From Candidatus Eiseniibacteriota bacterium (GTDB taxonomy: Bacteria; Eisenbacteria; RBG-16-71-46; JABDJR01; JAWXBZ01): a DNA stretch of 33,453 nt. The position numbers were made by a program, and so were the translations under genes. The number at the start of each line of letters is the position of its first letter. The stretch's first letter is position 1. The DNA is taken from the NCBI GenBank assembly GCA_034440375.1, contig JAWXBZ010000191.1, positions 1-33,453 on the forward strand, in the 5' to 3' direction. Positions 4,365-32,531 of the stretch are shown one piece after another. The notes under the pieces were generated by a model, which worked only from the letters and a program-made list of their open reading frames with translations, was not told the origin of the DNA and made no database searches.

Positions 4365-4404
4365 CCGGCGCAGGACAGGGGCCACTGGCTCCATCGGAGA
4401 TCCA

Positions 4405-4824: not shown

Positions 4825-4976
4825 GCGAGTGACTCCGTGGGGTTCATGCCTGGTGGCGGCTCCCGACAAACGGTCTAAACTTGCCGGGCTGTCTCCGGTA
4901 GCAAGGTTTGTAGCACGATCATGTACGCCACCACCGAAAAGATACGACAGAAGCAGCACACGGCATAGGAGGATGC

Positions 4977-10184: not shown

Positions 10185-10221
10185 CTGTTCACTGACCCGA
10201 TGACTGATTGGGTCGAAGTCA
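10124..10221 (+). repeat. 98-bp direct repeat, copy 1
   Basis: 92/98 identical to 12022..12119 by manual alignment. Confidence 0.95.
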
Positions 10222-10285
10222 CCTGCACCGCCCCGGTTTGACCCGAGATTCGCCCTATCCCTCCCAAACCTACGAACTGACGGCG

Positions 10286-10317
10286 TTTCTGGCGCAGCCG
10301 ATTATTGTGACGCTACA
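10286..10317 (+). repeat. Solo IS right-end terminal repeat, copy 1
   Basis: TTTCTGGCGCAGCCGATTATTGTGACGCTACA matches 32436..32467. Upstream 10233-10269 also resembles about 32326-32363. Confidence 0.8.
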
Positions 10318-10334
10318 GGAGAGGACAGACTCTG

Positions 10335-10868
10335 CTATTTCTCGCTCCGGAAAAAAACGTCGACGGCCGCCACGACAGCCGACCGAGAGAGGTTCGGGTA
10401 GCGGGCAAATTCCGATTCCGGGATCTGCCCAACCAGCAAACGGAGCTGAGATTCATCAACCATGCCGCTGTCGACGAAGTGGCGGGCATCGTCCAGATCC
10501 CTTGTGAATCCGCGGACGATCTTGGCGAAAACCTGAGCGTACGGGTCATAGTGATGGAATGTCACGGGAGGGATCGTTTCGATCAGGACATGGCGTCCGG
10601 CAGTTCCCCGAAGTGCGGGGACGAAGTGCTCGGGACGGGCGAACTCAATATTGACGTTCAGGCGTTCCTTGATCCCCTGAACATCGTGAAAAACCTCCTC
10701 GCGATCCGAATAGAGATCGACATCGATGGAGGCGGCCCGCCAGCCGGAATAGACAGCCGTCCCTCCACCGACAAGGTAAACCTGAAAGGCGCCCCGTCGC
10801 GGTGGAGCGACCCGCGCAATTTCCTGCATGAGCGTGCGGAGCCGCTCGCGGGTCAGTTCATTTCGCAC
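10335..10868 (-). CDS. Nucleotidyltransferase-fold protein (DUF6036-like), putative toxin
   Basis: VYLVGGGTAV..GWRAASIDVDL (GG...DxD) and KIVRGFTRDLDD. GTG 10868 overlaps the end of the upstream gene. Confidence 0.75.
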   Translation of the reverse strand: MRNELTRERLRTLMQEIARVAPPRRGAFQVYLVGGGTAVYSGWRAASIDVDLYSDREEVFHDVQGIKERLNVNIEFARPEHFVPALRGTAGRHVLIETIPPVTFHHYDPYAQVFAKIVRGFTRDLDDARHFVDSGMVDESQLRLLVGQIPESEFARYPNLSRSAVVAAVDVFFRSEK

Positions 10869-11313
10869 GGCGGCGCCCATTCCGGGTAAGGGTCCGGCAG
10901 GCGTCCGCGAACGAGCTGATCTGCCGCAGGCAAGCCAGATACCGGGCATGCGCCAGTTCCCCTGCCGACCGTTCGAGGAGTCGGAAGAGCCGGATCTCGG
11001 CATCCTGAAGGATGGTCGCCGGCAACGGCAGCCCTTCGCGCCGGAGCCTGGGAGCAGCCAGCGAGACCATGAGGCTCTCCATCGATTCCTTCCCGGCCAC
11101 GAGATCGTCCAGCCCCGTGTCGACCGCCTCGCCGCCCGGGAGTCCGAGCGCCTCAAAGCGAGCATTCCCGAAACGCGCCTCGGTCCAACGCCGGAGCGCA
11201 GCTCTCCGGGCGATCGCCGTACGCTCGACTGGCAAGAGCCGCCCGGCACGCGTCCGCCCACCGCGCGCCCCGTGCCTCCGAAATTGCTCCCGAATGACCT
11301 CAGGCAGCTTCAT
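10858..11313 (-). CDS. Partner protein of the nucleotidyltransferase (putative antitoxin/regulator) with basic N-terminal module
   Basis: N-terminal GARGGRTRA..L.P.ERTAIARRAA..RW basic module followed by an LPGG...GL.DL..G.ES...APRLR...AH.RY domain; overlaps the NTase gene. Confidence 0.7.
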   Translation of the reverse strand: MKLPEVIREQFRRHGARGGRTRAGRLLPVERTAIARRAALRRWTEARFGNARFEALGLPGGEAVDTGLDDLVAGKESMESLMVSLAAPRLRREGLPLPATILQDAEIRLFRLLERSAGELAHARYLACLRQISSFADACRTLTRNGRRRAK

Positions 11314-11319
11314 GAATTA

Positions 11320-11349
11320 AGTTTATACCTAGGGGGTAAGCATTTTCAA
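11320..11349 (-). promoter_or_regulatory. Sigma-70-type promoter predicting a leaderless transcript
   Basis: TTGAAA-N18-TAAACT, then 6 nt to ATG 11313 with no SD. A TACC-N5-GGTA palindrome lies in the spacer. Confidence 0.6.
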
Positions 11350-11474
11350 GTTCTGAAAACTACCTCGCGGGCAATGATTCAATCTGCCGGCGGCCGCTCC
11401 TGCCGTTCCGGTTCATTCGAGAGGCTTTCCAAACGTAACCCTCTTCGGAGCCCTCGCACGGAACGGTCACTCCA

Positions 11475-12005
11475 TCAACGGCGGCGGAACTTGAGCGCCC
11501 CCCAGGTCACCGGCTGCACCGGTGTCACATCCGGGCAGGAGTAGAGGAGCGCGTAGTCAAACGCAAGGTACGACTCGCTCGGAGCGATGACCCTGATCAC
11601 AACCTGCCCGTCTGTCATTGAAGCCCACGGCACCGTCGCCGAGGCTTTCTGCACAAGTCCGTCCTCGCCCCCGCCCTGGGTGGTCAGCGGAACGATAGTG
11701 CCATCGACATCGATGCTAGCCGGGATGACGTCGTAGTCGCCGCACACCAGGTCAAGGCAGTTGTCCACGTCGTAGTCGGGATCGCCCGTTATAGGCACGG
11801 AGAATGAGGACGTGAACATCGCTCCGTGCGCGGCGGGGGCGGGTGTGAGCGAACGATCGGTCATCTGTGCACCGTTGGTGCTCGAGAATTCGGAGGGATA
11901 CCCGCGAGGGTGATCGCACAGGTTGCCGTGGACTTCATTGGCTTCACAAACTCGAGCTTCATGCCCACCTTCACCCGCAACACCGATGAGAATTTTCTTG
12001 AGCAT
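11475..12005 (-). pseudogene. Chimeric ORF: SRPBCC-like fragments fused to the C-terminal part of a secreted TW-x3-K protein
   Basis: MLKKILIGVA start, an out-of-frame VGMKLEFVKPMKSTATCAITL segment resembling SRPBCC proteins, then about 140 codons ending CPDVTPVQPVTWGALKFRRR. No intact signal peptide. Confidence 0.55.
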
Positions 12006-12021
12006 TGAAGCCCTTCTAGAG

Positions 12022-12119
12022 GACTCGTATGAAACGAACGGCTCCATTTCGTACCGGGTCGTGCAGATTGGCCTGGGACTGACCGTTCACTGACCAAATG
12101 ACTGAGTGGGTCGAAGTCA
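12022..12119 (+). repeat. 98-bp direct repeat, copy 2
   Basis: 92/98 identical to 10124..10221. Confidence 0.95.
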
Positions 12120-12155
12120 GCTGGAGACGGCCACCAATCGATGGAAAGACAGGGA

Positions 12156-12265
12156 TCACTTCAGTTTGTTCAATGCCGAGTGCTTACCCCACCGATCTCC
12201 GGGAGCCTTCAGGTAGTTTTTGACGACGTATCCCCAGGGCATCACGAGTGGAATCAACACAAGTG
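12156..12265 (-). pseudogene. C-terminal fragment of a membrane protein gene
   Basis: LVLIPLVMPWGYVVKNYLKAPGDRW-stop reads like a real protein C-terminus but has no plausible N-terminus. Confidence 0.35.
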
Positions 12266-12548
12266 ATCTCCCGATTGAAGGTGCTGGCGTCACCACTAAG
12301 ACACCATCCAGGCCCGAAAGGGGACATGAGGCCATCGCCGCCGCAATCACAACTGGCGGGGCAAGTGATTGAGCTGAAATGAGATCTGGTTGGTGAGCTG
12401 GCAGCCAACGTAGAACCCTTGTAGACAGCGACTTGGCGGCCCTGGAGCAAAGTCCGCTGGGAAAAGGCCCGCATCGCCCAGGAACGTGCCTATACTCCAG
12501 GAGGCGGGCCGAGCGTAATTACTCCTCAATATTCATGGGGGTGTCGCC

Positions 12549-13235
12549 ATGATTCGGCGAGCATGTGTCATCGCGATTCTCACGGCAGGTGTCGTTTTCA
12601 CGACCACAATCGCCCGGGCCCTCGTCCCTAACCCGGGACTCTGCGACATTCCGAGGCCATTTCAGATTCATTCCTCGACAGCGCTCACGAACGCTGTCCC
12701 ATCACATGCTGCCAAATACAACGTGCTGATCCTCTCGACAGGTGGACCGATCAATGCTTCATCGGTGGAAATCCGAATGACGATTCCGGGCGATACACTT
12801 ACTTGCTGGTGCGACGGCCAGGTCGGACCCAGACCGTATGTCTTTCGGGAGCGCACCAATGCAGCCGGTATCGCCCGTTTCGTGGTCGGTGGGGGAGGAT
12901 GCATCGAGTATGGGCTGCTCGCCATCCCTGGCCATCTGGACTACGTGGGTGAAGTCTTTGCCGATGGAGTTCGCCTGCAGGAAATTGGCCTCGTCTCGTC
13001 GGACGTCGTCGACAATGCCGGACGGCGGGCCACCGACAGCCCCCGCTGGAGTCCCGCCGGGGCCTGCGCCGCCGGCCTTGCCGATGCCGTGGAACACACG
13101 ACGGCGTTATCGACCAACACGTATGACTGGTGCACCGACTTCAATTGTGACAACGACGCCGGGGTTTCAGATGCAGTGATCGTGACGCCGTTTCTAGCCG
13201 GCGCGGCAAACTGTAGTGGCGCGTCCGGGCCGTAG
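12549..13235 (+). CDS. Secreted Cys-containing protein with dockerin/EF-hand-like C-terminus
   Basis: Signal peptide ending ...TIARA; the C-terminal YDWCTDFNCDNDAGVSDAV resembles a Ca-binding dockerin loop. Confidence 0.7.
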   Translation: MIRRACVIAILTAGVVFTTTIARALVPNPGLCDIPRPFQIHSSTALTNAVPSHAAKYNVLILSTGGPINASSVEIRMTIPGDTLTCWCDGQVGPRPYVFRERTNAAGIARFVVGGGGCIEYGLLAIPGHLDYVGEVFADGVRLQEIGLVSSDVVDNAGRRATDSPRWSPAGACAAGLADAVEHTTALSTNTYDWCTDFNCDNDAGVSDAVIVTPFLAGAANCSGASGP

Positions 13236-13314
13236 ACAGCGTTTGTCGACTTCGCTGGGCCAATTCCGTTAGTGACCCACTTCGGCGTCACCGGAATCCG
13301 ACTCGATGTCACCG

Positions 13315-13572
13315 CCGGGACGCGGCGTAGGATCGATTCGTCGGAATAACAGGTTCAATCGGCTGCCCGCTGCCCAATCTCCAGGTGGACGGGCCCGGTA
13401 AGCCGTGTCGTTAGGCGTCCTTCGGGCCCGATTCAATCTGATTTCATAGTGCCATCCCCCGGAATGACGCCCAGTATCCCGGCCGGACTTCTACGGTGTC
13501 GCATCACACCGGCGGCCACGGACCGCATGAAGGCAGCACTTCTGACGCGGCCGAATATTTTAACCCTGCGGG
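13315..13572 (+). mobile_element. Solo right-end segment (about 258 bp) of the integrase-core IS
   Basis: Colinear with 32213..32469 from the last transposase codons (RDAA-stop) to the terminal repeat CTTCTGACGCGGCCGAATATTTTAACCCTGCG at 13539-13570. Confidence 0.85.
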
Positions 13573-13640
13573 ACAATCGTTGCCGCCGGCCCGGTTCTTC
13601 GAGCCGGCGGCAACTCTGGTTCTTGACTACCGGGAGAAGC

Positions 13641-14339
13641 CTACTGCGACCGGGATCCCGTGAGTGACTTGATCCGGCTCCACGTCGCGCCTTCGATCGG
13701 GGTGGGACAATGGTCGAAGATCAGTTCCACGTCGTCGATGTAGGCCGGAACGCCGCCCGCCGTCGAGTTGACGAGGAACACCTGCGCCAGGATGTACTTG
13801 GTGTCCACAGGAATGGCGACGCAGTTCACCACGACCTGCTGCCAGGTACCCGCATCCGCATCGAGCCCGAGGACGTTGTTGACCAGGAGCGTATGGGTGG
13901 GCCAGCCGTTCGGGCTGTTGAAGGTCCTGATGTCCACCCCGATCGTCGCACCGGGCGACAGGGCGCAGGTGTTACCCCACGCGCGAAGGCTCACCAGGGT
14001 CGGTGGCCCGGCCGAGACGTCCACTGCCTGCCAGGCCTGGCTGTGGGAACCGCCGCCCACATTGAGCTGGAGCATGTACGGATTGCTTCGCGGCCCGAGG
14101 CCGCAGGTGTTGACAGTGACAATCGAGGCATCCTCGGCGCCCCAGAAACCGTACTGGGCCGGAGGGCCGACGACAGTACCGAAATTGAACATCGGCCCGG
14201 CGGGACCGGCGTCGAAGCCGGGATTCACGAGCTGTGCGCCGGCCGGACCGGCCGCCCCCAGAAGGACCGTCAGTATGACTGGAATCATGAACCTTCTGGC
14301 CGGGACAAAAAGGGATTCTCTTCGAGACGCAATCTGCAT
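13641..14339 (-). CDS. Secreted protein with CBM-like jelly-roll features and C-terminal TW-x3-K motif
   Basis: ATG 14339 after AGGAAGGA, signal peptide ending ...PAGA-QLVNPGFD, YIDDVEL, ends CPTPIEGATWSRIKSLTGSRSQ. Confidence 0.8.
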   Translation of the reverse strand: MQIASRRESLFVPARRFMIPVILTVLLGAAGPAGAQLVNPGFDAGPAGPMFNFGTVVGPPAQYGFWGAEDASIVTVNTCGLGPRSNPYMLQLNVGGGSHSQAWQAVDVSAGPPTLVSLRAWGNTCALSPGATIGVDIRTFNSPNGWPTHTLLVNNVLGLDADAGTWQQVVVNCVAIPVDTKYILAQVFLVNSTAGGVPAYIDDVELIFDHCPTPIEGATWSRIKSLTGSRSQ

Positions 14340-14562
14340 GGAGTTGGTCCTTCCTGGGCGCCGATTGCCGCCTGCGTGCTGGCGGCACCGGAACCGCGTC
14401 GCGGGCAGAGAACAGCACAACGGGGATGCGGCGCGTTTCTCAAACCCATGGTGTGGTGGTGCCAGAGAGCTGGCCTCGTCGATGATGCTGGACAGGGCTC
14501 GAAAGCCGCCCATTCCCGGGGTCCGTGCGGATCCGGTGGTCCCCCCGTTCCCGCGTCTGGAG

Positions 14563-14740
14563 CGTAGGATGAAGATACTCCGCCGAAAGCCAACTGTCGA
14601 GTTTTTAGTTGGAAGCGGTTCGTCTGGCCCGGAGGGGCGAGGCTTCCCTGGCTCAGATTGCCGGGCGGATGGCTCGCGGCGGACTTCACTGACCGCGGGA
14701 TGACACCAACTCTGGCGCGGCTGGATATTTTGACCTTACG
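14563..14740 (+). mobile_element. 178-bp MITE-like derivative of the integrase-core IS
   Basis: Left end CGTAGGATGAAGATACTCCGCCGAAAGCCAACTGTCGA resembles 31380-31417, the right end at 14709-14740 resembles 32436-32467, and GGAG flanks both sides (14559-62 and 14741-44). Confidence 0.75.
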
Positions 14741-14802
14741 GGAGCCCCGGCAGAAGCGAGTGGACCAACTGCTTACGGTTGACATGATCCTACAGTCGGC
14801 GA

Positions 14803-17469
<2,667 letters not shown>

Positions 17470-17911
17470 GCAAGCTCCGCGATGAAGTCCAACACCAATG
17501 TCGGCATGCGATCTCTCCCTGGTTTTGATCGGGCCCCGGCCGCGCCCGGACGGTCGCACGATACATGAGGCCCCGGCCGTGGGGAAAGGCTCCACGAAAG
17601 CTTCTGGCGTCTACGCGGTGAAACAGCGTCGCCCACCGGGGGCTGTTGTAGTTGGAGGTTTCACAAGGCTATTTTCGGTAGCCGTCCTCGTTGCTGGCGA
17701 TGGCGTCTTTGTGCCAATTGTCGAGGAAGTCCAGCGGCGAGGAGTGATGGTCGTAGTGGCAGAACTTGGCCGACTCCTGGATCCGGAGTTGACCCGGTTT
17801 CCATGAGGACATGCTACAAATCCACCGCGCCTGACCGCTTTCCAGAAGACTCCATTCGTCATTCCTCCCGCCGTTCGCCAGTCCCTCAGTAACTCTCCCT
17901 CCGGGTTAGCG

Positions 17912-17942
17912 AAAAACCCCGAGGGCTCTCGCTCTCGGGGTT
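17912..17942 (-). terminator. Rho-independent terminator
   Basis: Minus strand CCCCGAGAGC-GAGA-GCCCTCGGGG-TTTTT downstream of 18029..20803. Confidence 0.7.
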
Positions 17943-17984
17943 CGTCGTTAACCATAGTGTCGCGGATAGTTTGCGGTTTTTGTC

Positions 17985-18023
17985 TGCCGGGGCCGGTCCG
18001 CCAGGTGCGGACCGGCTCCGGCA
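17985..18023. other. Strong 17-bp hairpin just after the stop of 18029..20803
   Basis: TGCCGGGGCCGGTCCGC-CAGGT-GCGGACCGGCTCCGGCA. Confidence 0.7.
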
Positions 18024-18028
18024 TTGTG

Positions 18029-20803: not shown

Positions 20804-21134
20804 GTGATCCCCCCAATGGCCAGGCCATCGTTGTCCGTTACAAGTGTGAGGTACGAGAGAGAAGTCATGCGGCCGGTTGTCCACGGAGCCGATGCAGGCG
20901 CATCAGGAGCGGTCAAAGCCACTTTCCCCCCCAGCGATTCGAAGGCACGTTGTTCAGTAGCTAGGCCTTACCGCAGGATGGCGTCTAACTTGGCCAGTCG
21001 TTCGTCGCCGTCCTTGGATTGAGGTGAACCGACATGTATCAGGAAGCTAAGCCCCGCCACCTGCCACACGAGCTACAGAAACTCGGTGCGGAATTGGGAT
21101 AAGTCATCTATCCCGAGATCCTTTACGCCTCATT

Positions 21135-21150
21135 AGCAAGGCGCGGGCCA
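21135..21150 (-). promoter_or_regulatory. Putative sigma-54 promoter for the repeat-protein gene
   Basis: Minus strand TGGCCCGCGCCTTGCT = TGGC-N7-TTGCT with exact GG-N10-GC spacing. Confidence 0.6.
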
Positions 21151-21329
21151 CTCGCTGACATACCAGATGGAAATCCTCACTCCCGGGTTGGGCCCACGGG
21201 AAAGAAGTGCCAGGATTGGAAGGACTGCTGGAGGAGGGGGACGAATTTTTCCAAAAGGAGTAGTCAATCTAACCGGGGGATCGGTCGAACCAGCCACGGA
21301 TCGATCGCCGCAAGCCTCAAATTACCGCG

Positions 21330-21765
21330 ATCCGAGTAAAACTTCCCGACCGACGCTAAGCCTCGGTCCCGGCCGAGACAATTCGTCTTCATTTCTCGCC
21401 GCCGGCCCGGGCTATGGCGAGGGTGCCCTCGCGGTCACGCTGAGTCAGCTCCGCGATAACGATCCGAACGGTTTCCCGCTCCTCTGGAGGAGAGTTCGTC
21501 CAGCACGTCGATTCCGTGACCGTTCTCGCGGATCCTCTGACTTTCGGTCTGTTCGTGAATACTGATGCATCGAACGGCAATTTCGGGATCGGGCTCGTCA
21601 GCGGACTGGTAAATCAACTGGACGGCCGGACCGTCCTGACTGACCTCCGGTGGCAGCGGATTGGCCAGAATCAACACATGGCTCCCAGCCTCCTGTCTCT
21701 CGACCAGGCCCTCCAGAATGCCGAGATGCTGGAAGGAATGCTGGTCCACTTCTCACATGGCGAAG
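21330..21765 (+). pseudogene. Possible degraded coding fragment cut by an IS end
   Basis: Two overlapping frames with protein-like composition; the second runs into the terminal repeat at 21766. No recognisable family. Confidence 0.25.
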
Positions 21766-21797
21766 TTTCAGACGCGGCTGATTATTATGACCCTACG
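21766..21797 (+). repeat. Solo IS right-end terminal repeat
   Basis: TTTCAGACGCGGCTGATTATTATGACCCTACG aligns without gaps to the other five copies. Confidence 0.8.
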
Positions 21798-21930
21798 GCC
21801 GGCATGATATTATCCTGAACATCATCCGTCCCCCAACCCTCCGAATAGGTTGCTCTCGGGAGGGATGGAGCGATAGACGTAATTCGGGAAGTTATTTGTC
21901 GGCGATTATTTTGCAACCATCGAGGAACGA

Positions 21931-23685
21931 ATGGCCAAAGCCACCGCCAAACGCACGCCTCCAAACCACGGCCTTGCCAAGGCCCCTACAGGTGTCCAGG
22001 GTCTGGATGAAATCACGGGGGGCGGCCTGCCGCGCGGCCGGCCCACGCTCGTCTGCGGTAGCGCCGGCTGCGGCAAGACGCTCCTTGCGATGGAGTTCCT
22101 GGTCCGTGGAGCCACACAGTTCGGTGAACCCGGCGTGTTCATGGCCTTCGAGGAGACTTCCAAGGAACTGACCGAGAACGTCCGCTCGCTCGGCTTCGAC
22201 CTGGACGAACTGGTCAAGCAAAAAAAGCTCGCCATCGACTTCGTACGGGTCGAGCGGAACGAAATCGAAGAAACCGGCGAATACGATCTGGAGGGGCTGT
22301 TCGTCCGCCTCAACTACTCGATCGATTCCATCGGCGCGAAACGGGTCGTGCTCGACACGATCGAGACGCTCTTCGGCGGTCTGTCCAACATGTCCATCCT
22401 GCGCGGCGAGCTGCGCCGGCTGTTCCGCTGGCTCAAAGACAAGGGTGTGACCGCCGTCATCACCGGCGAAACCGGCGACGGCACGCTCACCCGGCACGGC
22501 CTGGAAGAGTACGTGTCCGATTGCGTCATCCAGCTCGACCACCGGGTGGAGAACCAGGTTTCGACGCGGCGGCTGCGGATCGTCAAGTACCGGGGCACCA
22601 CGCACGGCACCAATGAATACCCCTTCCTGATCGACGAGGACGGCATCAGCGTCTTGCCCGTCACGTCCCTGGGATTGCTGCACGAGGTGAGCAACGAGCG
22701 AGTTTCGAGCGGCGTTCCGCGGCTCGACATGATGCTGAGCGGCGAGGGCTACTTCCGGGGCAGCACGGTCCTGATAACCGGCACGGCGGGCAGCGGCAAG
22801 ACCAGCCTCGCCGCCCACTTCGCTGTCGCCGCCTGCCAGCGCGGGGAACGCTGCCTGTATTTCTCCTTCGAGGAATCCCCGGGCCAACTGCTGCGCAACA
22901 TGCGCTCGATCGGCATCGACCTGGAGCCGTGGGTGAAGAAGGGCTTGCTGCAATTCCACTCCAGCCGCGCCGCGATCCACGGCCTGGAAATGCACCTGGC
23001 GACCATTCACAAATTGGTGCGCGACTTCCAACCGCGCGTGATGATCATGGATCCGATCGATACCCTTGTGGGGGCGGGGACGCGCCGGGACGCGACGGTG
23101 ATGCTGACCCGACTGATCGACTTCCTCAAGATCCAGGAGATCACGGCGCACTTGACCAACCTGACGGGTGCCGGCGAGGCCGTGGGAGAGACCGACATGG
23201 ACATTTCCTCCCTCGTGGACACCTGGCTGCTCTTGCGTGACCTCGAACTGGGCGGCGAGCGCAACCGGGTGATCAACGTCCTCAAGTCGCGCGGCATGGC
23301 CCATTCCAACCAGCTCCGCGAGTTCCTGCTCACCGACCGGGGGGTGGAATTGCAGGATGTGTACCTGGGCGCGGAGGGCGTCCTGACCGGCTCGGCGCGG
23401 CAGGCGCAAGAAGCCAGGGAAAAAGCCGTCACCATGCTGCGGCAGCAGGAAGTCGAAGGCAAGCAGCGCGAGCGGGAGCGGAGGCGGGAGGCGCTGGAAG
23501 CCCGCATCGTCGCCTTGCAGAAGGAGTTTGAAGCGGAAGAGGAAGAGGCCAAGCGGCTCAGCGCCGAGGTCCATGCGAGTCAGGAAGTCCTGGGGAAGGA
23601 CCGGGAGGAGATGGGTCGTAGCCGTAAGTCCGACGCGAACGAGACGACCGCCCGTTCCCGCAAGACACCGGGGAATCGCAAATGA
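21931..23685 (+). CDS. kaiC: Circadian clock-type ATPase/kinase KaiC (double domain, KaiC2-like)
   Basis: Two Walker A motifs ([16 protein letters not shown]), FEE motifs, KYRGTTH, phospho-site region [23 protein letters not shown], and a coiled-coil tail. Confidence 0.95.
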
Positions 23686-24032
23686 GAAAATCGGGCATAT
23701 CCGATGGGGCGAAGGCTCATGTAACCGCACCGGCGACCGAAATGTTCGAACTGCGGTTGTACATCGCCGGGCAGACGCCGCGTTCCGTCACCGCCTTCGC
23801 CAACTTGAAGGAGATCTGCGAGGAACACCTGTCAGGACGCTACAAGATCGAAGTCATCGACCTTCTCCTGCACCCGCAACTGGCCGCCGGCGACCAGATC
23901 GTGGCGATTCCGACGCTTGTGCGAAAACTCCCGGAACCGCTCCGCCGGATCGTGGGCGATCTGTCCAATACGGAACGAGCGCTGGTCGGATTGCAATTGC
24001 GGCCCGTGACGCAAAAAGACCCAACCTCGTGA
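23682..24032 (+). CDS. kaiB: KaiB
   Basis: [29 protein letters not shown]...[12 protein letters not shown]...[15 protein letters not shown] overlap with kaiC. Confidence 0.95.
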
Positions 24033-24373
24033 AAATACGAATGAATGCAAAGGACGGCAGACCCACGGCGGGCGCCGAGGTGCCGGCCGACGCTCAGGAC
24101 CGATACATTCTGCGCCTGTATGTCACCGGCATGACGCCGCGCTCGACGCAGGCGTTCGCCGCCATCAAGGCGGTCTGCGAGGAACACCTGCATGGGCGCT
24201 ACGACCTGGAGGTGATCGACATTTACCAGCACCCGCAACTGGCGAAGGACGAGCAGATCGTCGCCGTGCCTACGCTGGTTAAAAAACTGCCGGCGCCCTT
24301 GCGCCGATTGATCGGAGACCTGTCCGACATGGAGCGGGTGCTATTCGGCCTCGACCTGCGGCACAAGACCTAA
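24029..24373 (+). CDS. kaiB: KaiB, second copy
   Basis: [14 protein letters not shown]...[20 protein letters not shown]...[21 protein letters not shown]. Start is GTG 24029 (GTGA overlap) or ATG 24041. Confidence 0.93.
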
Positions 24374-24386
24374 CAAGAGAAAACGG

Positions 24387-26072
24387 ATGACGGGCGCGAA
24401 TCTACAAGAGGAAAACGACGACCTCCGGCGACGGCTCGAAGAAGCCGAGGAGGTGATCCGGGCCATTCACAGCGGCACGGTGGACGCCTTCGTGATCGCG
24501 GAGCCGCACGGGAATCGCATCTACACGCTGGAGAGCGCGGACCGTCCCTACCGCCTGCTGGTCGAGCAGATGCAGCAGGGGGCAGTTACGCTGAGCACCG
24601 ACGGCGCCATCGCCTACTGCAACCGCCGCTTTGCCGACTTGCTGCGCTGGCCGCACGAGCGACTGACCGGGGTCGCCTTCCGCGACTTCATCCCACCCGA
24701 AGGACAGGCTCCGTACGAGAACTTGTTGGAACAGTGCCACACCGGCGCCGGCCAGGGCGAGGCTCACTTGCAGAAGTCGGACGGCGGTCTGATCCCGGTC
24801 TTTCTCACCTTCAACGCGCTCCCGCCGGACTGCGGGGCCGCGATCGGCGTCCTCGTGACGGACCTGACGACGCAACGGCATCATGAGAAACTCGGCGCCG
24901 CCGTGGAGGCGCTCAAGCAGTCCGACCGCCACAAGAACGAGTTCCTGGCGATGCTGGCCCACGAACTTCGCAACCCGCTCGCCCCGATCCGCAACGCCCT
25001 GCAGATCTTGAGCCTGAAGGGCGGCAGAGGCAAGGCAAACGCATCGGCGACCGCGATGATAGAGCGTCAGGTCAACCAGATGGTCCGCTTGGTGGACGAC
25101 CTGCTCGACGTGAGCCGAATCGAGCAGGGCAAGATCAACCTGCACAGGGAACGGGTCGAACTGGCGTCGGTCGTACGCAACGCCGTCGAAGCGGCTCGCT
25201 CGCTGTACCAGGGCAGGAACCATGAACTGACGGTCGTGTTGCCGCCCGAGCCGATATACCTGAACGCCGACCCGACCCGGCTGGCTCAGGTGGTAGGCAA
25301 CCTTTTGAACAACGCATGCAAGTTCACTGACAAGGGCGGCCGGATATGGCTCACCGTCGAGCGAGACCCCCCCCAGCTCCCCCCTTCGCAAGGCGGGACA
25401 GGGGGGGGTGCGGTCATCCGGGTGCGGGATAACGGCATCGGCATCGCCGCCGACCAGCTCCCCTACATCTTCGACATGTTCACGCAGATCGACACCTCTA
25501 TCGAGCGTTCGGTCAGCGGACTGGGCATCGGCCTGACGTTGGTGAAAAAACTGATGCAAATGCACGAGGGTACGGTGGAGGCCCACAGCGGCGGCGCCAA
25601 TCAGGGGAGTGAGTTCATTGCGCGATTTCAGATCTCGGATTTCGGATTGGCGGATGGTTCTTCAATCGTCAATCCTCAATCCGAAATCCGAGATCCGAAA
25701 TCGAGACGCATCCTGGTTGTCGATGACAACCGGGACTCGGCCGATTCGCTGGCGATGTTGTTGACGCTGACCGGCAACGTGACACACATCGCCTACGACG
25801 GCATCGAAGCGGTCGAGGCGGCAGCGGCGTTCCGGCCCGACGTGGTGCTGCTCGACATCGGCCTGCCAAAGTTGAATGGTTATGACGCCTGCCGCAAGAT
25901 ACGAGAACAGCCCTGGAACACGGGGATGGTGTTGATTGCCCTGACCGGATGGGGACAGGATGGGGACCGCCGCAAGTCCCATGAGGCCGGGTTCGACGGC
26001 CATTTGGTGAAGCCGGTGGAGCTCGACATCCTCATGAAGCTGCTGGCCGAGTTATTGCCGACCCCGGCTTGA
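24387..26072 (+). CDS. PAS-domain hybrid histidine kinase-response regulator
   Basis: N-terminal coiled coil, PAS, H-box LAHELRNPL, N-box NLLNNACKF, DNGIG and GLGIGL, REC domain ILVVDD...LLDIGLP...KP. Confidence 0.93.
   Translation: MTGANLQEENDDLRRRLEEAEEVIRAIHSGTVDAFVIAEPHGNRIYTLESADRPYRLLVEQMQQGAVTLSTDGAIAYCNRRFADLLRWPHERLTGVAFRDFIPPEGQAPYENLLEQCHTGAGQGEAHLQKSDGGLIPVFLTFNALPPDCGAAIGVLVTDLTTQRHHEKLGAAVEALKQSDRHKNEFLAMLAHELRNPLAPIRNALQILSLKGGRGKANASATAMIERQVNQMVRLVDDLLDVSRIEQGKINLHRERVELASVVRNAVEAARSLYQGRNHELTVVLPPEPIYLNADPTRLAQVVGNLLNNACKFTDKGGRIWLTVERDPPQLPPSQGGTGGGAVIRVRDNGIGIAADQLPYIFDMFTQIDTSIERSVSGLGIGLTLVKKLMQMHEGTVEAHSGGANQGSEFIARFQISDFGLADGSSIVNPQSEIRDPKSRRILVVDDNRDSADSLAMLLTLTGNVTHIAYDGIEAVEAAAAFRPDVVLLDIGLPKLNGYDACRKIREQPWNTGMVLIALTGWGQDGDRRKSHEAGFDGHLVKPVELDILMKLLAELLPTPA
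25366..25409. repeat. REP-like C/G-rich palindrome within the kinase reading frame
   Basis: ACCCCCCCC-AGCT-CCCCCCTT-CGC-AAGGCGGG-ACA-GGGGGGGGT, encoding DPPQLPPSQGGTGGG. Confidence 0.8.
25623..25703. repeat. Heptamer-based palindrome (27-bp arms) in the HATPase-REC linker
   Basis: 25623-25649 and 25677-25703 are reverse complements with one mismatch, built from (A)ATCCGA-type 7-mers. Confidence 0.9.
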
Positions 26073-26099
26073 TCTTGGCGTCGGCCTTTTGCGGCACGA

Positions 26100-26204
26100 T
26101 CTCCGTTGCCTTTTGTCTGGCTCCGCGGGCAGATGGCTCAGGGCGTGCGCCGCGGATCGAGATATGACGATACTTCTGGCACGGCTGAATAATTTGACCC
26201 TACG
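26100..26204 (+). mobile_element. Solo right-end segment of the integrase-core IS
   Basis: Terminal repeat CTTCTGGCACGGCTGAATAATTTGACCCTACG at 26173-26204. The upstream 45-70 nt align with about 32370-32435 and 14660-14708. Confidence 0.8.
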
Positions 26205-26490
26205 GGCGCGCGGAAATGCTACCGGTGAGCCGGAACTACCTCCATCACTTCCGGCAGATGTAGGGCGGGGTGGCCAGACTCCAGGTCTGTTCGACTCGGG
26301 CACTCCGGGCGAAGTTGACAGACCGACCGCCGTTGGCCCCATAATGCGCGGGCTCAACTTCAACCGCCCACCCTCCGGAGCAGCTCCCGCGACGAGGAGG
26401 CGCGTCCGGCGCCGCAGGAGCTTGCCGATGGTGATTGACGCATTGATGGTCAGAGGACACGAGGCGCTCAAGGCGCGGGCACGCTAGCGG

Positions 26491-29367
26491 GTGACGGAAC
26501 ACACCCTCCAGGCTGGCGACCGGCTCTCCCACTACCGGATTGTGAGCCCCCTGGGATCGGGCGGCATGGGCGAGGTGTACCTTGCCCAGGATCTCACCCT
26601 CGAGCGCAGTGTGGCGCTAAAGGTCCTCCCGGCGCAGCTGGTCCGTAACGATGAGCGGCTGCGGCGCTTCGTCCTTGAAGCCAGGGCGGCGTCCTCGCTC
26701 AACCACCCGGGCATCGTCACGATCCACGAGATCGGTTCGGGCGAGATCGAGCGTGCGGGTGAGGCGTCGGGTCCGATCCACTTCATCGCCATGGAGCGGA
26801 TCGACGGGCGTACGCTGCACGAGCTGATCCATGACGACAAGGAAGACCTGCGCCGCCTGCTCGGCTACCTCGCCCAGGCCGCGGACGGCATCGCCAAGGC
26901 TCACGCGGCCGGGATCGTCCACCGCGACCTCAAGCCGGGCAACATCATGGTCTCGCGGGACGGCTTCGCCAAGGTGCTCGACTTCGGACTGGCCAAGCTG
27001 ACGGAAGCCGGGCCCGAGGCCGAGAACGCCAGCCTGGCGCCGACACGTGCCGCCGAGCAGACGAGCGCGGGGACGTTGCTGGGCACCGTCGGCTACATGT
27101 CGCCTGAGCAGGTGCGGGGAAAGTCAGTCGACTTCCGTTCCGATATCTTCTCGTTCGGCTGCATCCTCTACGAGGCCGTGACGCGGAAGCGCGCATTCGC
27201 GGCGGACTCCGCCGTGGACACGATGCACAAGATCCTGCACGATGCGCCTGTCGAGACGCAGGAACTGAACCCGAAGGCGCCCGCCGACCTGCGACGCCTC
27301 GTGCGGCGCTGCCTCGCCAAGAGCCCCGACCAGCGCCTTCAGTCGATGAAGGATCTTGCCATCGAACTGAGGGAGATCGCCGACGATTTCGATTCGCTCT
27401 CGGATTCGGCGAGTTCGGGGAGCGGCATCGAGGCCGTAGGATTGGCACCCCGCACCGCCCGAAGCCGTGCGCCGATGATCGGCGGGGCGATCGCCGCGGC
27501 ACTCGCGATCACGGCGCTGGCAATCGGAATCCCGCGCCTCCTGGATCGTGGCGCTGGCAGGTCCATGGACGCGGCGCCGGCCGCCGGGCTGAATGTGACG
27601 AGCATTTCGGGCCGGGCGGGTGTTTCCGGCGTGGCCATCTCCGGCGACGGCCGCTACCTCGCCTACCCGGTCAATGCCTCGGGCATGTCGTCGATCTGGA
27701 TCCGGCAGGTCGCCACGGGGAGCGAGGTCCAGGTCGTGCCCCCGCGCAAGGAGTTCGTGGCAGTCCCCCGCTTCTCCGCGACCGGGGACTACGTCTTCTT
27801 TCTCGGCCAGGACCCGGATCATCCGACGATGGCCTCGCTGGAGCGGGTACCGACCCTGGGCGGTCCATCGACCGTGGTGGCTTCCGACGTCGGCTACCGT
27901 TTCAGCGTGACACGAGACGGCAAGAGTGTCTGCTTCGTCCGGTCCAATCCCAAGTCCGGGAAGGCTTCGGCAATCGTGCGCGACCTCGAGTCCGGCCAGG
28001 AAAAGACGCTGGCGACCGTGGCGGAGCCGCTCATATTCCAGGGCCCTCCCACGCTGTCTCCCGATGGCAGGAGATTCGTCACGGCCATCCACACGGCGGA
28101 GAAGGGGATCCACGGACAGTTGGCGTCGATCGATGCGACAACCCTGGCGCAGACCCGTTTCGGCCCCACGGGATGGGAGGCGGGCTCTTTCGAGTGGTTT
28201 CCGGACGGCAAGGCGCTCGTCATGACCGCGTACAAGTTTGGCGAGCACGAACAAACCCAGCTTTTCCTCGTGTCGTATCCCGACGGTCGATACCGGAGGA
28301 TCACGAGCGATTCCAACGGCTACAATGAGTTCGGCATGACCGCGGATGGCCTGACGATCGCGGCATTCCGCTCGGCCAGAGTGTCGAACGTCTGGAGCGT
28401 CCCCTTCTTTGCCAAGGCAAGGCCGAAACAGCTCACATTCAACGCCAGCAGCGCCAGTGCCGTCGGATCGTTCGTCGTGTCGGGAGACAGCACCATCGCC
28501 TTCAGCGCCGCCACCGGTCACAACACCCACATCTGGACACTCGACGGGAATGGCCAGGCGCCGCGTCAGATCACGCCGGGAGCGAACGGCGAAGAGGTCA
28601 ATCGCGCCCTCCTGGGCGACGAACTCATCGTATCCCGCACGGGGTCGGACTACACCGCGCATATCTTCGTCATGAATCGTGACGGGGGCAACGTACGTCC
28701 GCTTGTCAGCGGCACCGGGGAGTGGTTCCAGGGGCTCAGCCCCGATGGCAAGACCCTGCTCTACACGCGCGTCGATTCGCTGCGCGCCCTCTTCGCGGTT
28801 CCCGTCGCCGGGGGCGAGCCGCGCATGGTCTCGTCGTCCTACGACTACACCGTGGATGTTTCGCCCGACAATCGCACCGTCGCCTATTTCGAGCCGGCGG
28901 AACTGGAAGGCGCGTCCATCACATGCGTCGTCGCGCCGATCGAAGGGGGAGCGCCGATCGCAGGGGGAGCGCCGATCGCAACGTTCACGTTACCGCCGCA
29001 ATCCCACGCGCTGAGGTGGACGCCGGACGGCAAGGCGCTCTCCTTCCTGGTGCGGAAGGACGGCACCTCCAATCTCTTCCTGCAGTCGCTTGCCGGCGGG
29101 CCGCCCCGGCTGGTGACGCAACTGACCGAAGGGACGATCGACGACTATCGCTGGTCCCCCGACGGACTGAGCCTCGTGCTGAAACGCACGATCGCGGATG
29201 TCGCCAACCTCTGGAGCGCCGGCACCGACGGCCGCGCACCCGAACCGATCACCGACTTCGCGACGGGGTCGATCTTCGCGATCGACATCTCCAGGGACGG
29301 AAGGACGATCTACTTCCTCTACGGCAACGAGAGCAACGACATCGTCCTGCTGAACAACTTCCGCTAG
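26491..29367 (+). CDS. Hanks-type Ser/Thr kinase with TM helix and PD40/TolB-like beta-propeller
   Basis: GSGGMG, VALK, HRDLKPGN, DFG and YMSPE; TM IGGAIAAALAITALAIG; SPDG/WTPDG repeats. Confidence 0.92.
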   Translation: MTEHTLQAGDRLSHYRIVSPLGSGGMGEVYLAQDLTLERSVALKVLPAQLVRNDERLRRFVLEARAASSLNHPGIVTIHEIGSGEIERAGEASGPIHFIAMERIDGRTLHELIHDDKEDLRRLLGYLAQAADGIAKAHAAGIVHRDLKPGNIMVSRDGFAKVLDFGLAKLTEAGPEAENASLAPTRAAEQTSAGTLLGTVGYMSPEQVRGKSVDFRSDIFSFGCILYEAVTRKRAFAADSAVDTMHKILHDAPVETQELNPKAPADLRRLVRRCLAKSPDQRLQSMKDLAIELREIADDFDSLSDSASSGSGIEAVGLAPRTARSRAPMIGGAIAAALAITALAIGIPRLLDRGAGRSMDAAPAAGLNVTSISGRAGVSGVAISGDGRYLAYPVNASGMSSIWIRQVATGSEVQVVPPRKEFVAVPRFSATGDYVFFLGQDPDHPTMASLERVPTLGGPSTVVASDVGYRFSVTRDGKSVCFVRSNPKSGKASAIVRDLESGQEKTLATVAEPLIFQGPPTLSPDGRRFVTAIHTAEKGIHGQLASIDATTLAQTRFGPTGWEAGSFEWFPDGKALVMTAYKFGEHEQTQLFLVSYPDGRYRRITSDSNGYNEFGMTADGLTIAAFRSARVSNVWSVPFFAKARPKQLTFNASSASAVGSFVVSGDSTIAFSAATGHNTHIWTLDGNGQAPRQITPGANGEEVNRALLGDELIVSRTGSDYTAHIFVMNRDGGNVRPLVSGTGEWFQGLSPDGKTLLYTRVDSLRALFAVPVAGGEPRMVSSSYDYTVDVSPDNRTVAYFEPAELEGASITCVVAPIEGGAPIAGGAPIATFTLPPQSHALRWTPDGKALSFLVRKDGTSNLFLQSLAGGPPRLVTQLTEGTIDDYRWSPDGLSLVLKRTIADVANLWSAGTDGRAPEPITDFATGSIFAIDISRDGRTIYFLYGNESNDIVLLNNFR
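28933..28980 (+). repeat. 18-nt in-frame tandem repeat (about 2.7 units)
   Basis: GCGCCGATCG(A/C)AGGGGGA twice plus a partial unit, encoding APIEGG-APIAGG-APIA. Confidence 0.85.
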
Positions 29368-30185
29368 CGGCCCGGAGGCGTGGAACGCTCGCGCAGCCTC
29401 TCGATCTCCCGACGCAAGCCCCTGACCTCCTCGAGGATCTGCCGGGTATGCGCCTCGCCCTCACCCCTCAGGTCTTCCGCGATCTGAGATTGCATGGCAT
29501 TGACGACCACCGCGATGAACAGGTTCAGGATCATGAAGGTCGCGATGAGCAGGTAGACGGCGAAGAAGATCCAGGCCAGCGGCGCCTCGGCCATGACGCC
29601 GCGCGCGATGTCGGGCCACCCCTCGACGGTCATCACCTGGAACAACGTGAAGAGTGACGTCGTGAGAGTCCCGAAGTACTCCGGCGAGATGTCGCGGAAG
29701 AGCTTCGTGGCCAGCACCGACGACACGTAGAGCACGAGCCCCATCAGGCCAATGATGGACGCCATCCCCGGCATGGCGGAGAGCAGCGCACCGACCACCC
29801 CGCGCATCGAGGGCACGAGCGAGACCAGCCGCAGCATCCGCAGCACCCGCAAGGAACGCAGGACGCTGAAGGCACCCCCGACCGGCATGACCGCGATCCC
29901 GACGATCAGCAGATCGAACACCCGCCAGGGGTCGTGGGCGAAACGACTCCGATAGACGAATAAACGGGCCAGCAACTCGGCGACGAAGATGGCCAACACC
30001 ATGCGATCGATCAGGCGAAACCAGTCTCCGAATCGCGCCACGATCGCCGGCGAGGACTCCAGTCCGAGCGTGATGGCATTGGCCAGGATCAGCCCGGTAA
30101 TGGCCCGCTCGAAGCGGGTATTCTCGATGAGGGCACGGACGCGCTCGCGTACGCCGGACGAACTCTCCGGGTGATTCGTGTTGAT
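29364..30185 (-). CDS. Bacterial voltage-gated cation channel (BacNav/ion transporter family)
   Basis: S1 LILANAITLGLE, S3 PWRVFDLLIV, S4 LRSLRVLRMLRL, filter FQVMTVEGWPD, S6 LNLFIAVVVNAM, coiled-coil tail. The frame extends upstream of GTG 30041 to ATC 30185 behind GAGGAGG (273 aa). Confidence 0.9.
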   Translation of the reverse strand: MNTNHPESSSGVRERVRALIENTRFERAITGLILANAITLGLESSPAIVARFGDWFRLIDRMVLAIFVAELLARLFVYRSRFAHDPWRVFDLLIVGIAVMPVGGAFSVLRSLRVLRMLRLVSLVPSMRGVVGALLSAMPGMASIIGLMGLVLYVSSVLATKLFRDISPEYFGTLTTSLFTLFQVMTVEGWPDIARGVMAEAPLAWIFFAVYLLIATFMILNLFIAVVVNAMQSQIAEDLRGEGEAHTRQILEEVRGLRREIERLRERSTPPGR

Positions 30186-30399
30186 ACGTCCTCCTCGGGG
30201 CAGTCTGAGGCCTCAAAATGCGGGGTCACTGTATGGTCCGCCCAAATCCGCATGGGATACCGTCGGCGGCACGAGCGGCAGCTTAGGGGGTTCGGGACCC
30301 GGGCACCAGTTGGTCCGTCGCCGGCCCGGGATGATCTTCCAGGCGCGGCCTACAGTGCCTGCTCCCCCCGGCCTGGTGTAGATTGTCCCCATGCCCCTG

Positions 30400-30610
30400 A
30401 CCCCCGGAACCCGCCTGGAGACGATAGAAATGAACGCCCGATGCGATTCCAGCGGTATTGAATTCACATTCGTGAGGTCCTGCGTACAGCAGAACGTTTG
30501 CGAGCGTGGTGACGGCGCGTCCGGTCACGTCGAAGACCCCTTCACGAGATCGCGCTTACGCGGGTCAAGCGGACTCATAGTTCGACGGATGAGGGGGCGT
30601 GCGGATTTCC
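30400..30610 (-). pseudogene. Remnant of a T9SS/FlgD-like C-terminal domain
   Basis: VFDVTGRAVTTLAN...AGPHE..FN..GIASGVHFYRLQAG, frameshifted upstream and with no attached gene. Confidence 0.6.
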
Positions 30611-30810
30611 CACATCCGGCTTTCGGACAAGGATTCACGCGTTGCCCACGACACGCTGCGGTTCGGTGTCTCATCCACGTTGGCAGAGAGGGCTTATCTC
30701 GATAACAAGGTAGCACTTACAGAATACCGGTTGCAGAGCGGGAACGATTGCAATAAGTTAAACACTGTACTGGTGACTGGATAGTAAAGCGAATAACAAG
30801 GAGGCGCGAT

Positions 30811-31263
30811 TTGGACTCAATACGGTTGTCTGGGACGCGGGTGCGTCGAATGGTTGTCGCGGCGGTCTTGCTGCTTCTCACGCTGACTTTTATCGTGCTG
30901 CCCGCGGGCGCAGGGCAACCACCCCCGCCTTCAAGCACCACGACCATTACCTCTTCGAATGGATGCTCTTTCACGGTGACTTACACGTGGCAGGGCTTCC
31001 ATGGTAAGGGGCTTATCGCTGTATTCGGTTTGTACGAGCGCTTGAATGGTTTAGATGCCAGCTACAATCTCTTTAGTGTGCCGGGGGTGAGCGGCAAAAG
31101 CGGCTCCGTTTCGCATACCTTCAACTTCACGGGTACTACCACTTCCCGAACCGTCCTCTTCAGGGGGGCTTTGCAAAACGGCAGGACCTTTGCGCAGGTC
31201 AGCGGCTCCACTTCGGGGACGGGCCTGTTCGCTTCGGACTGCGCCAACCCCACGAGCCCCTAG
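30811..31263 (+). CDS. Small secreted hypothetical protein
   Basis: SD AAGGAGG before TTG 30811, signal peptide ending ...LPAGA, Thr/Ser/Gly-rich beta-type mature part. Confidence 0.7.
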   Translation: MDSIRLSGTRVRRMVVAAVLLLLTLTFIVLPAGAGQPPPPSSTTTITSSNGCSFTVTYTWQGFHGKGLIAVFGLYERLNGLDASYNLFSVPGVSGKSGSVSHTFNFTGTTTSRTVLFRGALQNGRTFAQVSGSTSGTGLFASDCANPTSP

Positions 31264-31379
31264 CCTTTATAATTCGCGAGCCGGCGATTTGAGTAGCGAC
31301 GCGAAGGCCTCCGAGAGCCCCGTATAATCGGGCGCGAACCTGGGGCTCAACCGGGCCGTCCCCTCGAACTGCTCGATCG

Positions 31380-32467
31380 CGCAGGGTCAAAGTATTCGGC
31401 CGAGTCGCAATTGTCGAACGTACTTCACCTTGCGACGTTGCTCTGCGCCCATGGCTCGCCCGATTGAGGGACATCCATTCCTCCCCGATGCTCCCCGGCT
31501 TTTGCCAAGGACCACTGGGAGCATCCATGCGCACCGTCCTCCAACCGTGGCACATCTTTGTCGTCATCCTCGCCGGTTGGGTCAATCGCCGGCAGCACGA
31601 CGCCATCGACTACCTGCGAACCGAGAACCAGGTCTTGAGGGAGGCGTGTGGCAAGAAGCGGATTCCCCTGACCGATTCCCAGCGCCGTCGCTTGGCGATC
31701 AAGGGGAAGCTCCGGCCACCGGTCTCCCAGGAAGTCATCGACCTTGTTCTCCGACTCGCCCGTGAGAATCGAAGCTGGGGCTTTGACACGGCCAGTCCGA
31801 ATTTCGCATGGATAAAGCAGATCGCCAGAAATCTGACCGACTGCACCGACGGATTTCTCCTGGGATCCCACTTCGTTCTGATGGATCGCGACACGAAGTT
31901 CTGTGAGGAGTTTCGCTCGCTTCTCAGGGATGCCGGAATCACTCCCGTCATACTTCCCGCCCGATCGCCAAATCTCAATGCGCTTGTCGAGCGATTCATG
32001 AGGTCGCTGAAATCCGAGTGCCTCAACCGGATGATCTTCTTCGGCGCGAACTTATTGCGGGGTGCCGTCCGCGAGTACCTCGCCCATTATCACCGGGAGA
32101 GGAATCATCAGGGGCTTGGCAATCGGCTGATCGAGCCGGACGTCAGGGTCGGAGAGGATGCTGGCGACATTCAGTGCCGCGAGCGGATCGGCGGGCTCCT
32201 GAAGTACTACTACCGGGACGCAGCGTAAGGTCGATTCGTCGGCGCAGTTGATTCAAACAGCTGGCCCCTTCCCCATCTCTCCGGGGACGGGCCTGATAGG
32301 CCATGTCGTGATGCGACTCTCGGGCCAGGTTCACCCGAATCCATCCCGCCTTCCCCCCAAACGACGCCCAATATCTCGGCCCGATTTCGGCAGTCGTGCT
32401 TCACGCCGAGCGCCGAGGACTGGGGAATGGCGCCATTTCTGGCGCAGCCTAATATTTTGACCCTACG
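31380..32467 (+). mobile_element. Degenerate IS element with integrase-core (rve-type) transposase and terminal inverted repeats
   Basis: Left end CGCAGGGTCAAAGTATTCGGCCG is an inverted match to right end ...CAGCCTAATATTTTGACCCTACG and the pair encloses the transposase. No target duplication is visible. Confidence 0.8.
31527..32228 (+). pseudogene. Integrase-core DDE transposase with two apparent in-frame internal deletions
   Basis: LAGWVNR.Q...IDYL..EN.VL, ARENRSWG, DRDTKF, RSPNLNA..ERF.RSLK.ECL, YH.ERNHQGL.N and ER.GGLLKYY are present. The segments I expect between KGK and RP and between WG and the W..QIARN motif (including the first catalytic Asp, DFF) are absent. Confidence 0.8.
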
Positions 32468-32531
32468 GGCCCCGCACTTTCCAGCAGGATCTACTGTGAG
32501 TGTTCACGTCGACAGGAATTTTCGTAAACCC

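Follow-up and report, generated by a model that had tools for sequence, protein, structure and literature searches.

Co-oriented right ends of an IS481-like insertion sequence family at gene-module junctions in a Candidatus Eiseniibacteriota genome: a possible insertion hotspot with erosion in place

The locus considered here raises the question of how six short repeats, all pointing the same way, came to lie between unrelated gene modules within some 22 kb of a bacterial genome, and whether such repeats take any part in bringing the modules together. The window, by which is meant the whole stretch analysed, is 33,453 nucleotides long and is the entire contig JAWXBZ010000191.1 (C191) of a Candidatus Eiseniibacteriota metagenome-assembled genome (MAG; GCA_034440375.1, here G000) of 3.96 Mb in 264 contigs, 93.7% complete. 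An initial annotation had taken the repeats for right ends of insertion sequences (IS) that bound the modules as in an integron-like array. The repeats are indeed right ends, and the explanation that seems best, to which we give about an even chance of being right, is a hotspot of repeated insertion by one IS481-like family, the copies of which would then have eroded in place.

The six copies start at 10286, 13539, 14709, 21766, 26173 and 32436, all on the + strand, and pattern search and alignment recover them as first described. Five are found by a consensus search at up to three mismatches, which gives no hit in 100 dinucleotide shuffles, and the copy at 14709 carries four mismatches to the consensus. 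GG follows directly on five of the six, as had been seen before, and the divergence between copies that had also been remarked upon amounts to 45-86% identity over 71 columns, consistent with copies that belong to different members of the family or differ in age. Repeat finding and ungapped alignment extend the conserved unit beyond the 32 nt first described, to about 45-75 nt inward from the tip.

These copies are the right ends of a single IS481-like family, comprising the inverted repeat and about 40 nt of subterminal sequence, and about 21-33 nt of terminal inverted repeat are common to the right end and to the left end at 31380-31416. Full-length relatives encode a 360-aa transposase with HTH_32 and rve_3 domains (protein P0002 carries both), and the relatives' transposase is a single open frame of 349-405 aa with no frameshift in the best eight loci. 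The family is widespread (5466 transposase homologues at E ≤ 0.001, with 20 of 206 genomes of the phylum having one at E ≤ 1e-60), yet its transposase lies under the NCBIfam cut-offs for IS481 and IS3: P0002 scores 105.7 bits against NF033577 (transpos_IS481), where the cut-off is 224, and 87.7 bits against the second-best model, IS3, while the transposase copy in the window scores 56.9 bits against NF033577. Since P0002 stays below the IS481 cut-off the family is named IS481-like and is not filed as a member. Among the papers listed in a literature search, none deals with this IS family to judge by its title or the beginning of its abstract.

Related elements help to define the ends. Three copies of about 1.42 kb in the genome G058 are 99% identical and delimit a related IS with the same core. 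A strict pattern scan of a metagenome collection gave 18 loci, 11 of which are left ends adjoining a transposase start, and one of which (L069) corresponds to the window. Two further loci (L064 and L066) are the same locus and contain a full-length IS that has the whole 71-nt unit at its right end; its flanks are 100% identical to contig C164 of the MAG and its transposase is 100% identical to P0002, and so the IS481-like family is still present full-length in this population. The left tip of that element departs from other left ends over its last 9-10 nt. Another four of the 18 loci show no transposase in the fetched flanks, namely L055 and L057 (identical, and of left type), L059 (right type) and L068 (undecidable). 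Solo left-type ends thus exist in other samples, at L055/L057 and at L049. Among 60 relatives the motif gave just four weak partial matches (18-20 bits) and a strict scan of 185,579 species genomes gave five loci, three of which we read as coincidences in Firmicutes coding sequences and two as left-end-type ends.

Within G000 the ends were searched for genome-wide with nhmmer, with a sequence-only Infernal model and with a position weight matrix (PWM) of the 26-nt core. Nine right ends are found at E ≤ 2.6e-12 (nhmmer, with which Infernal agrees), six within the 22-kb span of the window, one on contig C73 and two adjacent on contig C117; the left end at 31380 follows as the next nhmmer match (E 7e-4), and no other match has an E value under 0.17. 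The core PWM returns the same nine right ends and, in the window, the left end at 31379 and nothing else, so no cryptic inverted core is present there. A candidate seventh, degenerate end at 9933-9957 was rejected, its E value being 0.2-0.7 and its sequence unconvincing. Left ends number two, at 31380 and 14563; both had been recognised in the initial annotation, both are real (that at 14563 matches the left ends of the full-length L064 element and of the window IS), and no further one was found in the genome-wide search. By our own arithmetic the probability of six of nine right ends falling inside 22 kb of 3.96 Mb is of the order of 1e-9, and so what the scan finds is strong clustering with a scarcity of left ends, not balanced ends scattered about the genome.

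All of these end counts are lower bounds, because the MAG loses IS copies: the L064/L066 element has flanks matching C164, and C117 begins inside another transposase gene, from which it follows that intact IS copies exist in the population and are absent from the MAG. About 1 kb beside the L064/L066 IS is also absent. A fragmented MAG, and repeats as the very places where assemblies go wrong, might prompt the suspicion that the pattern is an assembly artefact or a chance resemblance, but this is barely credible given the empty shuffles and given that an independent Joint Genome Institute (JGI) metagenome contig, L069, is the window itself at 100% identity. Contigs from two other runs of the same habitat moreover bridge copies 2, 3, 4 and 5 without differences; the junctions being spanned in other runs, the layout is not one assembly's chimera. 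In the sediment runs some parts of the window have near-zero cover (30828-31491 for example), and contigs stop at 32473/32477.

The copies have reached very different states. The most complete is the last, at 31380..32467 on the + strand (as are all the features of this paragraph that lie in the window), and the expectation that the sixth motif copy is the right end of an rve-type element is borne out, the element being defective. It has its left end at 31380-31416, right end 6 at 32398-32467 and an open reading frame (ORF) of 254 aa at 31464-32228 of which Pfam rve_3 matches only the C-terminal part. Two in-frame internal deletions, of 40 and about 87 codons, have removed most of the catalytic core, as comparison with L064 by blastn and an hmmsearch show (in the latter, hmm positions 1-62, 103-128 and 215-360 remain aligned), and this copy is therefore unable to move on its own. 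The ORF stays open with its N-terminal part kept, which may make for a trans-acting inhibitor or regulator or may be a lucky frame. The transposase frame is also open from the left tip to the ATG and from the stop to the right tip, so that a single stop is met around the whole element, although in DNA of 63% GC this may mean nothing. At 14563..14740 lies a 178-bp deletion derivative with a left end at about 14563-14610 and right end 3 at 14670-14740 (E 1.5e-17); short, non-coding, with inverted ends and flanked by GGAG at both 14559-14562 and 14741-14744, it alone has the make-up of a miniature inverted-repeat transposable element (MITE). A 258-nt remnant at 13315..13573 contains right end 2 and the non-coding region past the transposase stop (blastn 71% over 258 nt to 32213-32470; a 300-nt profile aligns 13280-13572), and has neither transposase nor left end. 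The other three are short stubs. Stub 1 (10258..10320; nhmmer E 4.5e-13, PWM 29.3 bits) is the most eroded and diverged, with about 49-63 nt recognisable and identities of 0.46-0.62 to the others. Stub 4 (21728..21800; nhmmer E 2.6e-12) is also diverged, the 300-nt profile aligning only 21757-21798, and kaiC starts 130 nt beyond its tip. Stub 5 (26134..26207; nhmmer E 3.9e-18) begins 62 nt past a histidine kinase stop, is identical in L069 and is spanned by a contig of run X2 covering 25933-26940.

Outside the window the same range of states is met. The end on C73 retains 569 nt and overlaps the 3' end of a peptidase ORF, and L059, from another metagenome, cuts a kinase gene at about residue 210; both are plain insertions. 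At C117:13400-13649 two right ends stand in tandem, the tip of a 70-nt unit abutting position -178 of a second right part, of which 178 nt are left, and the junction lies at a G-rich microhomology. The lengths kept, the tip being included in every case, are thus 1088, 569, 258, 178, 178 and about 42-75 nt. IS481 elements make a target-site duplication of fixed length within 4-15 bp (ISfinder). Matching flanks are seen here as the GGAG of the MITE, and none is seen at the window IS or at the three G058 copies; the right flank nearly always starts with GG.

The reading that we favour would take the 22-kb stretch as an accessory zone, tolerant of rearrangement and with many signalling genes, where members of the IS family would have inserted repeatedly into the intergenic gaps. 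The copies would then have decayed in place and unequally, to yield an internally deleted IS, the 178-bp MITE, the 258-nt remnant and three short stubs. Ends that mark old insertion points between genes would come to resemble module boundaries, and they would not now be working as recombination sites. Loss after insertion is argued for by the two shortest stubs being the most diverged and by an apparent shortening in a related strain. The sediment run X9 holds a strain 1-6% diverged, in which one contig (depth 7) joins 21677 to 21782 via five other letters, so that the inner part of stub 4 (21678-21781, 104 nt) is gone. This deletion, seen in a single contig at 90% likeness, suggests that stub erosion is still going on.

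A second route to such stubs is that they arrived already truncated and without cargo, through a polar transposition, abortive or one-ended, in which copying begins at the right tip and proceeds inward to a variable extent. Every incomplete copy does retain the exact tip with a varying inner limit, the stubs have neither an IS body nor a left end next to them, even where space is tight (stub 5 follows the histidine kinase stop by 62 nt, and the gap in the genome G001 discussed below is 295 nt), and the tandem arrangement on C117, where a 70-nt unit abuts an internal position of another right part, is of the kind this would leave. One-ended transposition is known from Tn3-family, IS91-type and IS1380-type elements and from IS911. 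We know of no demonstration of it for this IS481-like family, for the stubs of which it is possible. The divergence of the shortest stubs and the further shortening of one of them speak instead for loss after insertion, as the solo left-type ends of other samples speak against a polarity from the right tip, and arrival in a truncated state is on balance improbable. Two other derivations for the stubs were rejected. They are not MITE halves, the left 107 nt of the MITE being unlike the 250 nt upstream of six other ends (200 shuffles each), and the low-GC patches to the left of stubs 1, 2 and 4 are not decayed IS bodies, as six-frame hmmsearch found no transposase remnant in them.

Whether the ends do anything for the host was also considered. 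A structured RNA was rejected, as RNAalifold on the nine copies yields three trivial pairs at -0.83 kcal/mol and no conserved hairpin, and the motif has no Rfam match; the window holds no tRNA. A small ORF was likewise rejected, although an in-frame ATG occurs in eight of the nine copies and some of the changes look synonymous, since column entropy is equal over the three codon phases (0.58, 0.61 and 0.47), without codon periodicity, and the full-length IS lacks the ATG. The ends might alternatively be kept as outward promoters, or as sites bound by the 254-aa transposase derivative, which is catalytically dead and would have a regulatory role. Homology of the kaiC operon to other genomes begins at the kaiC start codon, which places its promoter either within stub 4 or in the 130 nt that separate this stub from kaiC; stub 5 holds a sigma-70-like match (ATGACG, an 18-nt spacer, AATAAT), and the deleted transposase frame is open after two in-frame deletions with a coding-like GC content at third codon positions (0.75). 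Against this the promoter-like pair is kept, as we read the alignment by the criteria of the promoter scan, in only four of ten copies, no promoter was found at stub 4, four of the six tips in the window face the 3' end of a convergent gene, and the kinase gene beyond stub 5 comes with a conserved promoter of its own. That the stubs are kept because they serve the host is accordingly judged very unlikely.

As for the modules between the ends, a Pfam scan of the 41 ORFs of the window confirms most of the contents first proposed, namely KaiC, two KaiB, a histidine kinase with response regulator (HK-RR), two Pkinase plus PD40 genes, a CARDB repeat protein and an Ion_trans channel, while the genes once called toxin-antitoxin-like and dockerin-like have no Pfam or NCBIfam match. 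The kaiC-kaiB-kaiB-hybrid histidine kinase operon (21931..26072, + strand) fills the space between stubs 4 and 5; its four-gene order recurs in the genome G131, and its host here is a non-cyanobacterial uncultured lineage. No integrase of the IntI or Phage_integrase type and no other recombinase domain is found among the 41 ORFs. The array does share with integrons its co-oriented short repeats between unrelated gene modules. It differs in that the repeats are transposon ends, that the modules comprise several genes and occupy both strands, and that no attC-like hairpin is present. With no target duplications of modules, no cryptic left ends, no hairpin and no recombinase, a role of the ends as integron-like cassette boundaries is not supported, and what survives of the proposed cargo array is the recent movement of one module, which is stub-adjacent in two genera.

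That module is the Ser/Thr kinase gene downstream of stub 5 (26491-29367, Pkinase plus PD40). In the only same-family genome compared, G001, which belongs to a different genus, a segment corresponding to 26305..29378 (+ strand) is found at 88% nucleotide identity over 3074 nt, including 186 nt upstream of the gene with a TTGACA box. Identity at four-fold third positions is 0.80 (506 sites), where two other gene pairs of G000 and G001 reach 0.52 and 0.58, a control region is 67-73% identical between the two genomes, and the next best homologues of the kinase in the phylum show 47% protein identity. The excess of identity at synonymous sites shows that the kinase gene was transferred recently between the G000 and G001 lineages. 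In G000 the shared segment begins 98 nt beyond the tip of stub 5, at the kinase's own promoter. The best match that the motif model has anywhere in G001 (15.8 bits, E 0.047), which by our reading has a right-type subterminal box, is a stub in a 295-nt gap after the kinase, 193 nt away from where the shared segment ends and with its tip facing the gene; by our arithmetic the chance of a genome's best match falling within a few hundred bases of a given gene is about 2 in 10,000. Between tip and kinase (98 nt in G000, 193 nt in G001) the two genomes do not share sequence, and relative to the tip the gene runs the opposite way in one of them. No simple model with a single unit accounts for both arrangements. 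They could be explained by a composite transposon that lost its two inner ends independently, or by insertions that happened separately next to the gene. In each of the two genomes a histidine kinase adjoins the stub; that these are orthologues was rejected, at 26% identity over the catalytic core only.

These arrangements bear on the possibility that the modules were brought and stacked by the IS itself, as composite transposons, as IS26-like translocatable units or as units that make use of a right end lying downstream, the stubs being what is left of the IS. Ends at every junction in one direction would follow from such accretion, as would a recent kinase cassette adjoining a right-end-type stub in two genera with opposite gene orientation relative to the tip, the patchy distribution of the Kai operon (without a DNA-level match in G001) and of the channel (with a match in 7 of 205 other genomes), and the occurrence in G058 of full copies in one orientation. 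The distribution tally counts an unpublished genome (G054), on which no claim rests. The module-level traces do not bear it out, there being no target duplications of modules and no left or surrogate ends at module starts. The flanks relevant to composite transposons do not match either, with GGAG outside 14563 and with GCCG, GGCG and GGCC after ends 4, 5 and 6. The unshared tip-to-cassette sequence counts against it too, as do the histidine kinase, channel and kinase 2 genes being saturated at synonymous sites against their best homologues (0.45-0.56). Taken together, the module genes other than the kinase 26491-29367 are at 0.45-0.70 over four-fold sites against their best homologues, saturated or nearly so. 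A recent transfer of the Kai operon was rejected, since kaiC reaches 0.65-0.70 at four-fold sites to two other-family genomes but the histidine kinase only 0.45; the operon shows no clear recent transfer, only its patchy distribution. Other genomes have homologues of the Kai operon, of kinases 2 and 5 and of the channel, and none of the 41 loci concerned (36 loci over 195 kb and 5 loci over 16 kb) carries an IS end. Variation of the modules in a relative had been put forward as a check. G001 has no synteny with the window, but a 20-kb control region is just as scattered over the G001 contigs, and so broken synteny between the two genomes is uninformative. Accretion by the IS is thus doubtful, if with a real chance of being correct.

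A bolder form of the same idea would have the right ends act as landing or joining sites which stack gene-sized foreign pieces on their tip side, a DDE transposase taking the place of the integron integrase and the one-sided survival of ends being the signature of the mechanism. The promoter-plus-kinase cassette shared by two genera would be an example of such a piece. We think this improbable.

Several points weigh against repeated insertion followed by erosion in place. No transposase remnant lies beside stubs 1, 2, 4 and 5 (six-frame hmmsearch with a profile of 70 transposases) and no remnant of the MITE left half lies in the 250 nt upstream of those four ends, which would have to have lost all but their last 42-260 nt. 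Right ends outnumber left ends by 9 to 2 (10 to 3 with L064 counted), a surplus not predicted by simple decay, and the six window copies share one orientation, for which we obtain the same chance figure as was first given, 1 in 32. The kinase next to a right-end stub in two genera is an odd coincidence if the ends have nothing to do with the movement of the gene. The counts, moreover, come from a fragmented MAG of the stated completeness that demonstrably misses IS copies. Part of the right-end surplus may be a detection bias of unequal models, since the right-end model had nine copies of a 75-nt unit to learn from, whereas that for left ends had three sequences, which vary more. As to orientation, the three full-length copies in G058 are co-oriented within 37 kb of contig C12, 12-21 kb apart, which makes clear that same-direction clusters can arise in an IS481-like family without any cargo logic. 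Surplus and shared orientation would on the hotspot reading come from a bias of insertion or deletion, from weaker detection of left ends or from chance; that reading does not itself explain them.

Among described systems the nearest found is that of the mobile insertion cassette (MIC) and solo-end clusters of TnXax1 in Xanthomonas (Ferreira et al. 2015, PMC4337579). There, solo inverted repeats without transposase stand beside passenger genes, clustered in a plasticity region with mobile-element debris, and the authors interpret solo ends as what earlier transposition or recombination left behind. TnXax1 is of the Tn3 family, with 5-bp duplications and with ends described there mostly as inverted pairs around a passenger gene, whereas the ends considered here are IS481-like, of the right type only, in direct orientation and with a matching flank at the 178-bp MITE only. 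Likeness to MITEs and internally deleted IS is plain at 14563-14740, with both ends, no gene and a 4-bp flank repeat, and at 31380-32467, which is internally deleted and has no matching flanks; the difference is that four of the six window copies are without a left end. Pseudo-compound transposons and translocatable-unit arrays of IS26 (IS6 family) have whole IS26 copies with flanks shared in a known pattern. They resemble the present locus in that direct copies of one IS punctuate acquired genes, and differ in that here only stubs are found, of another transposase family. In ISEcp1-type (IS1380) and Tn3-type one-ended transposition the mobilised unit retains the whole IS; a constant end, a variable other limit and genes just past the end are common ground, but the families are IS1380 and Tn3 and surrogate ends were not found here.

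The surroundings of the ends offer further observations. A 102-nt direct repeat (10124-10225 and 12022-12123, 93% identical, nowhere else in the genome and without an Rfam match) brackets stub 1 and two uncharacterised ORFs, both on the - strand (10335-11261 and 11475-12047), and could be an att-like duplication of a small integrated element. At 17905-17993 lies a non-coding element of about 89 nt with a terminator-like hairpin and no Rfam match, 98.6% identical at C73:1-71 of G000 and 91% at C45:50-142 of G001, where it is 212 nt beyond the right tip of a same-family IS; it is far more conserved than the genes around it. A kinase fragment at 4402-4829 is 82% identical to 16806-17474 and is apparently a duplicate, now a pseudogene, of the N-terminal region of the kinase encoded at 14803-17595, and a secreted ice-binding-like protein is encoded at 959-1777 (PF11999, E 3e-79).

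If the ordinary reading holds, that of repeated insertion and erosion in place, the locus is an IS graveyard in a little-known uncultured phylum, useful for annotation, and its right ends are a marker of a plasticity zone that carries a Kai clock-like operon and several Ser/Thr kinases. A narrower point is that a tight promoter-plus-kinase cassette, stub-adjacent in both genera, moved recently between them. Should the kinase move and the surplus of right ends turn out to be linked, they would point to a route by which a DDE transposase brings about the ordered accretion of genes.

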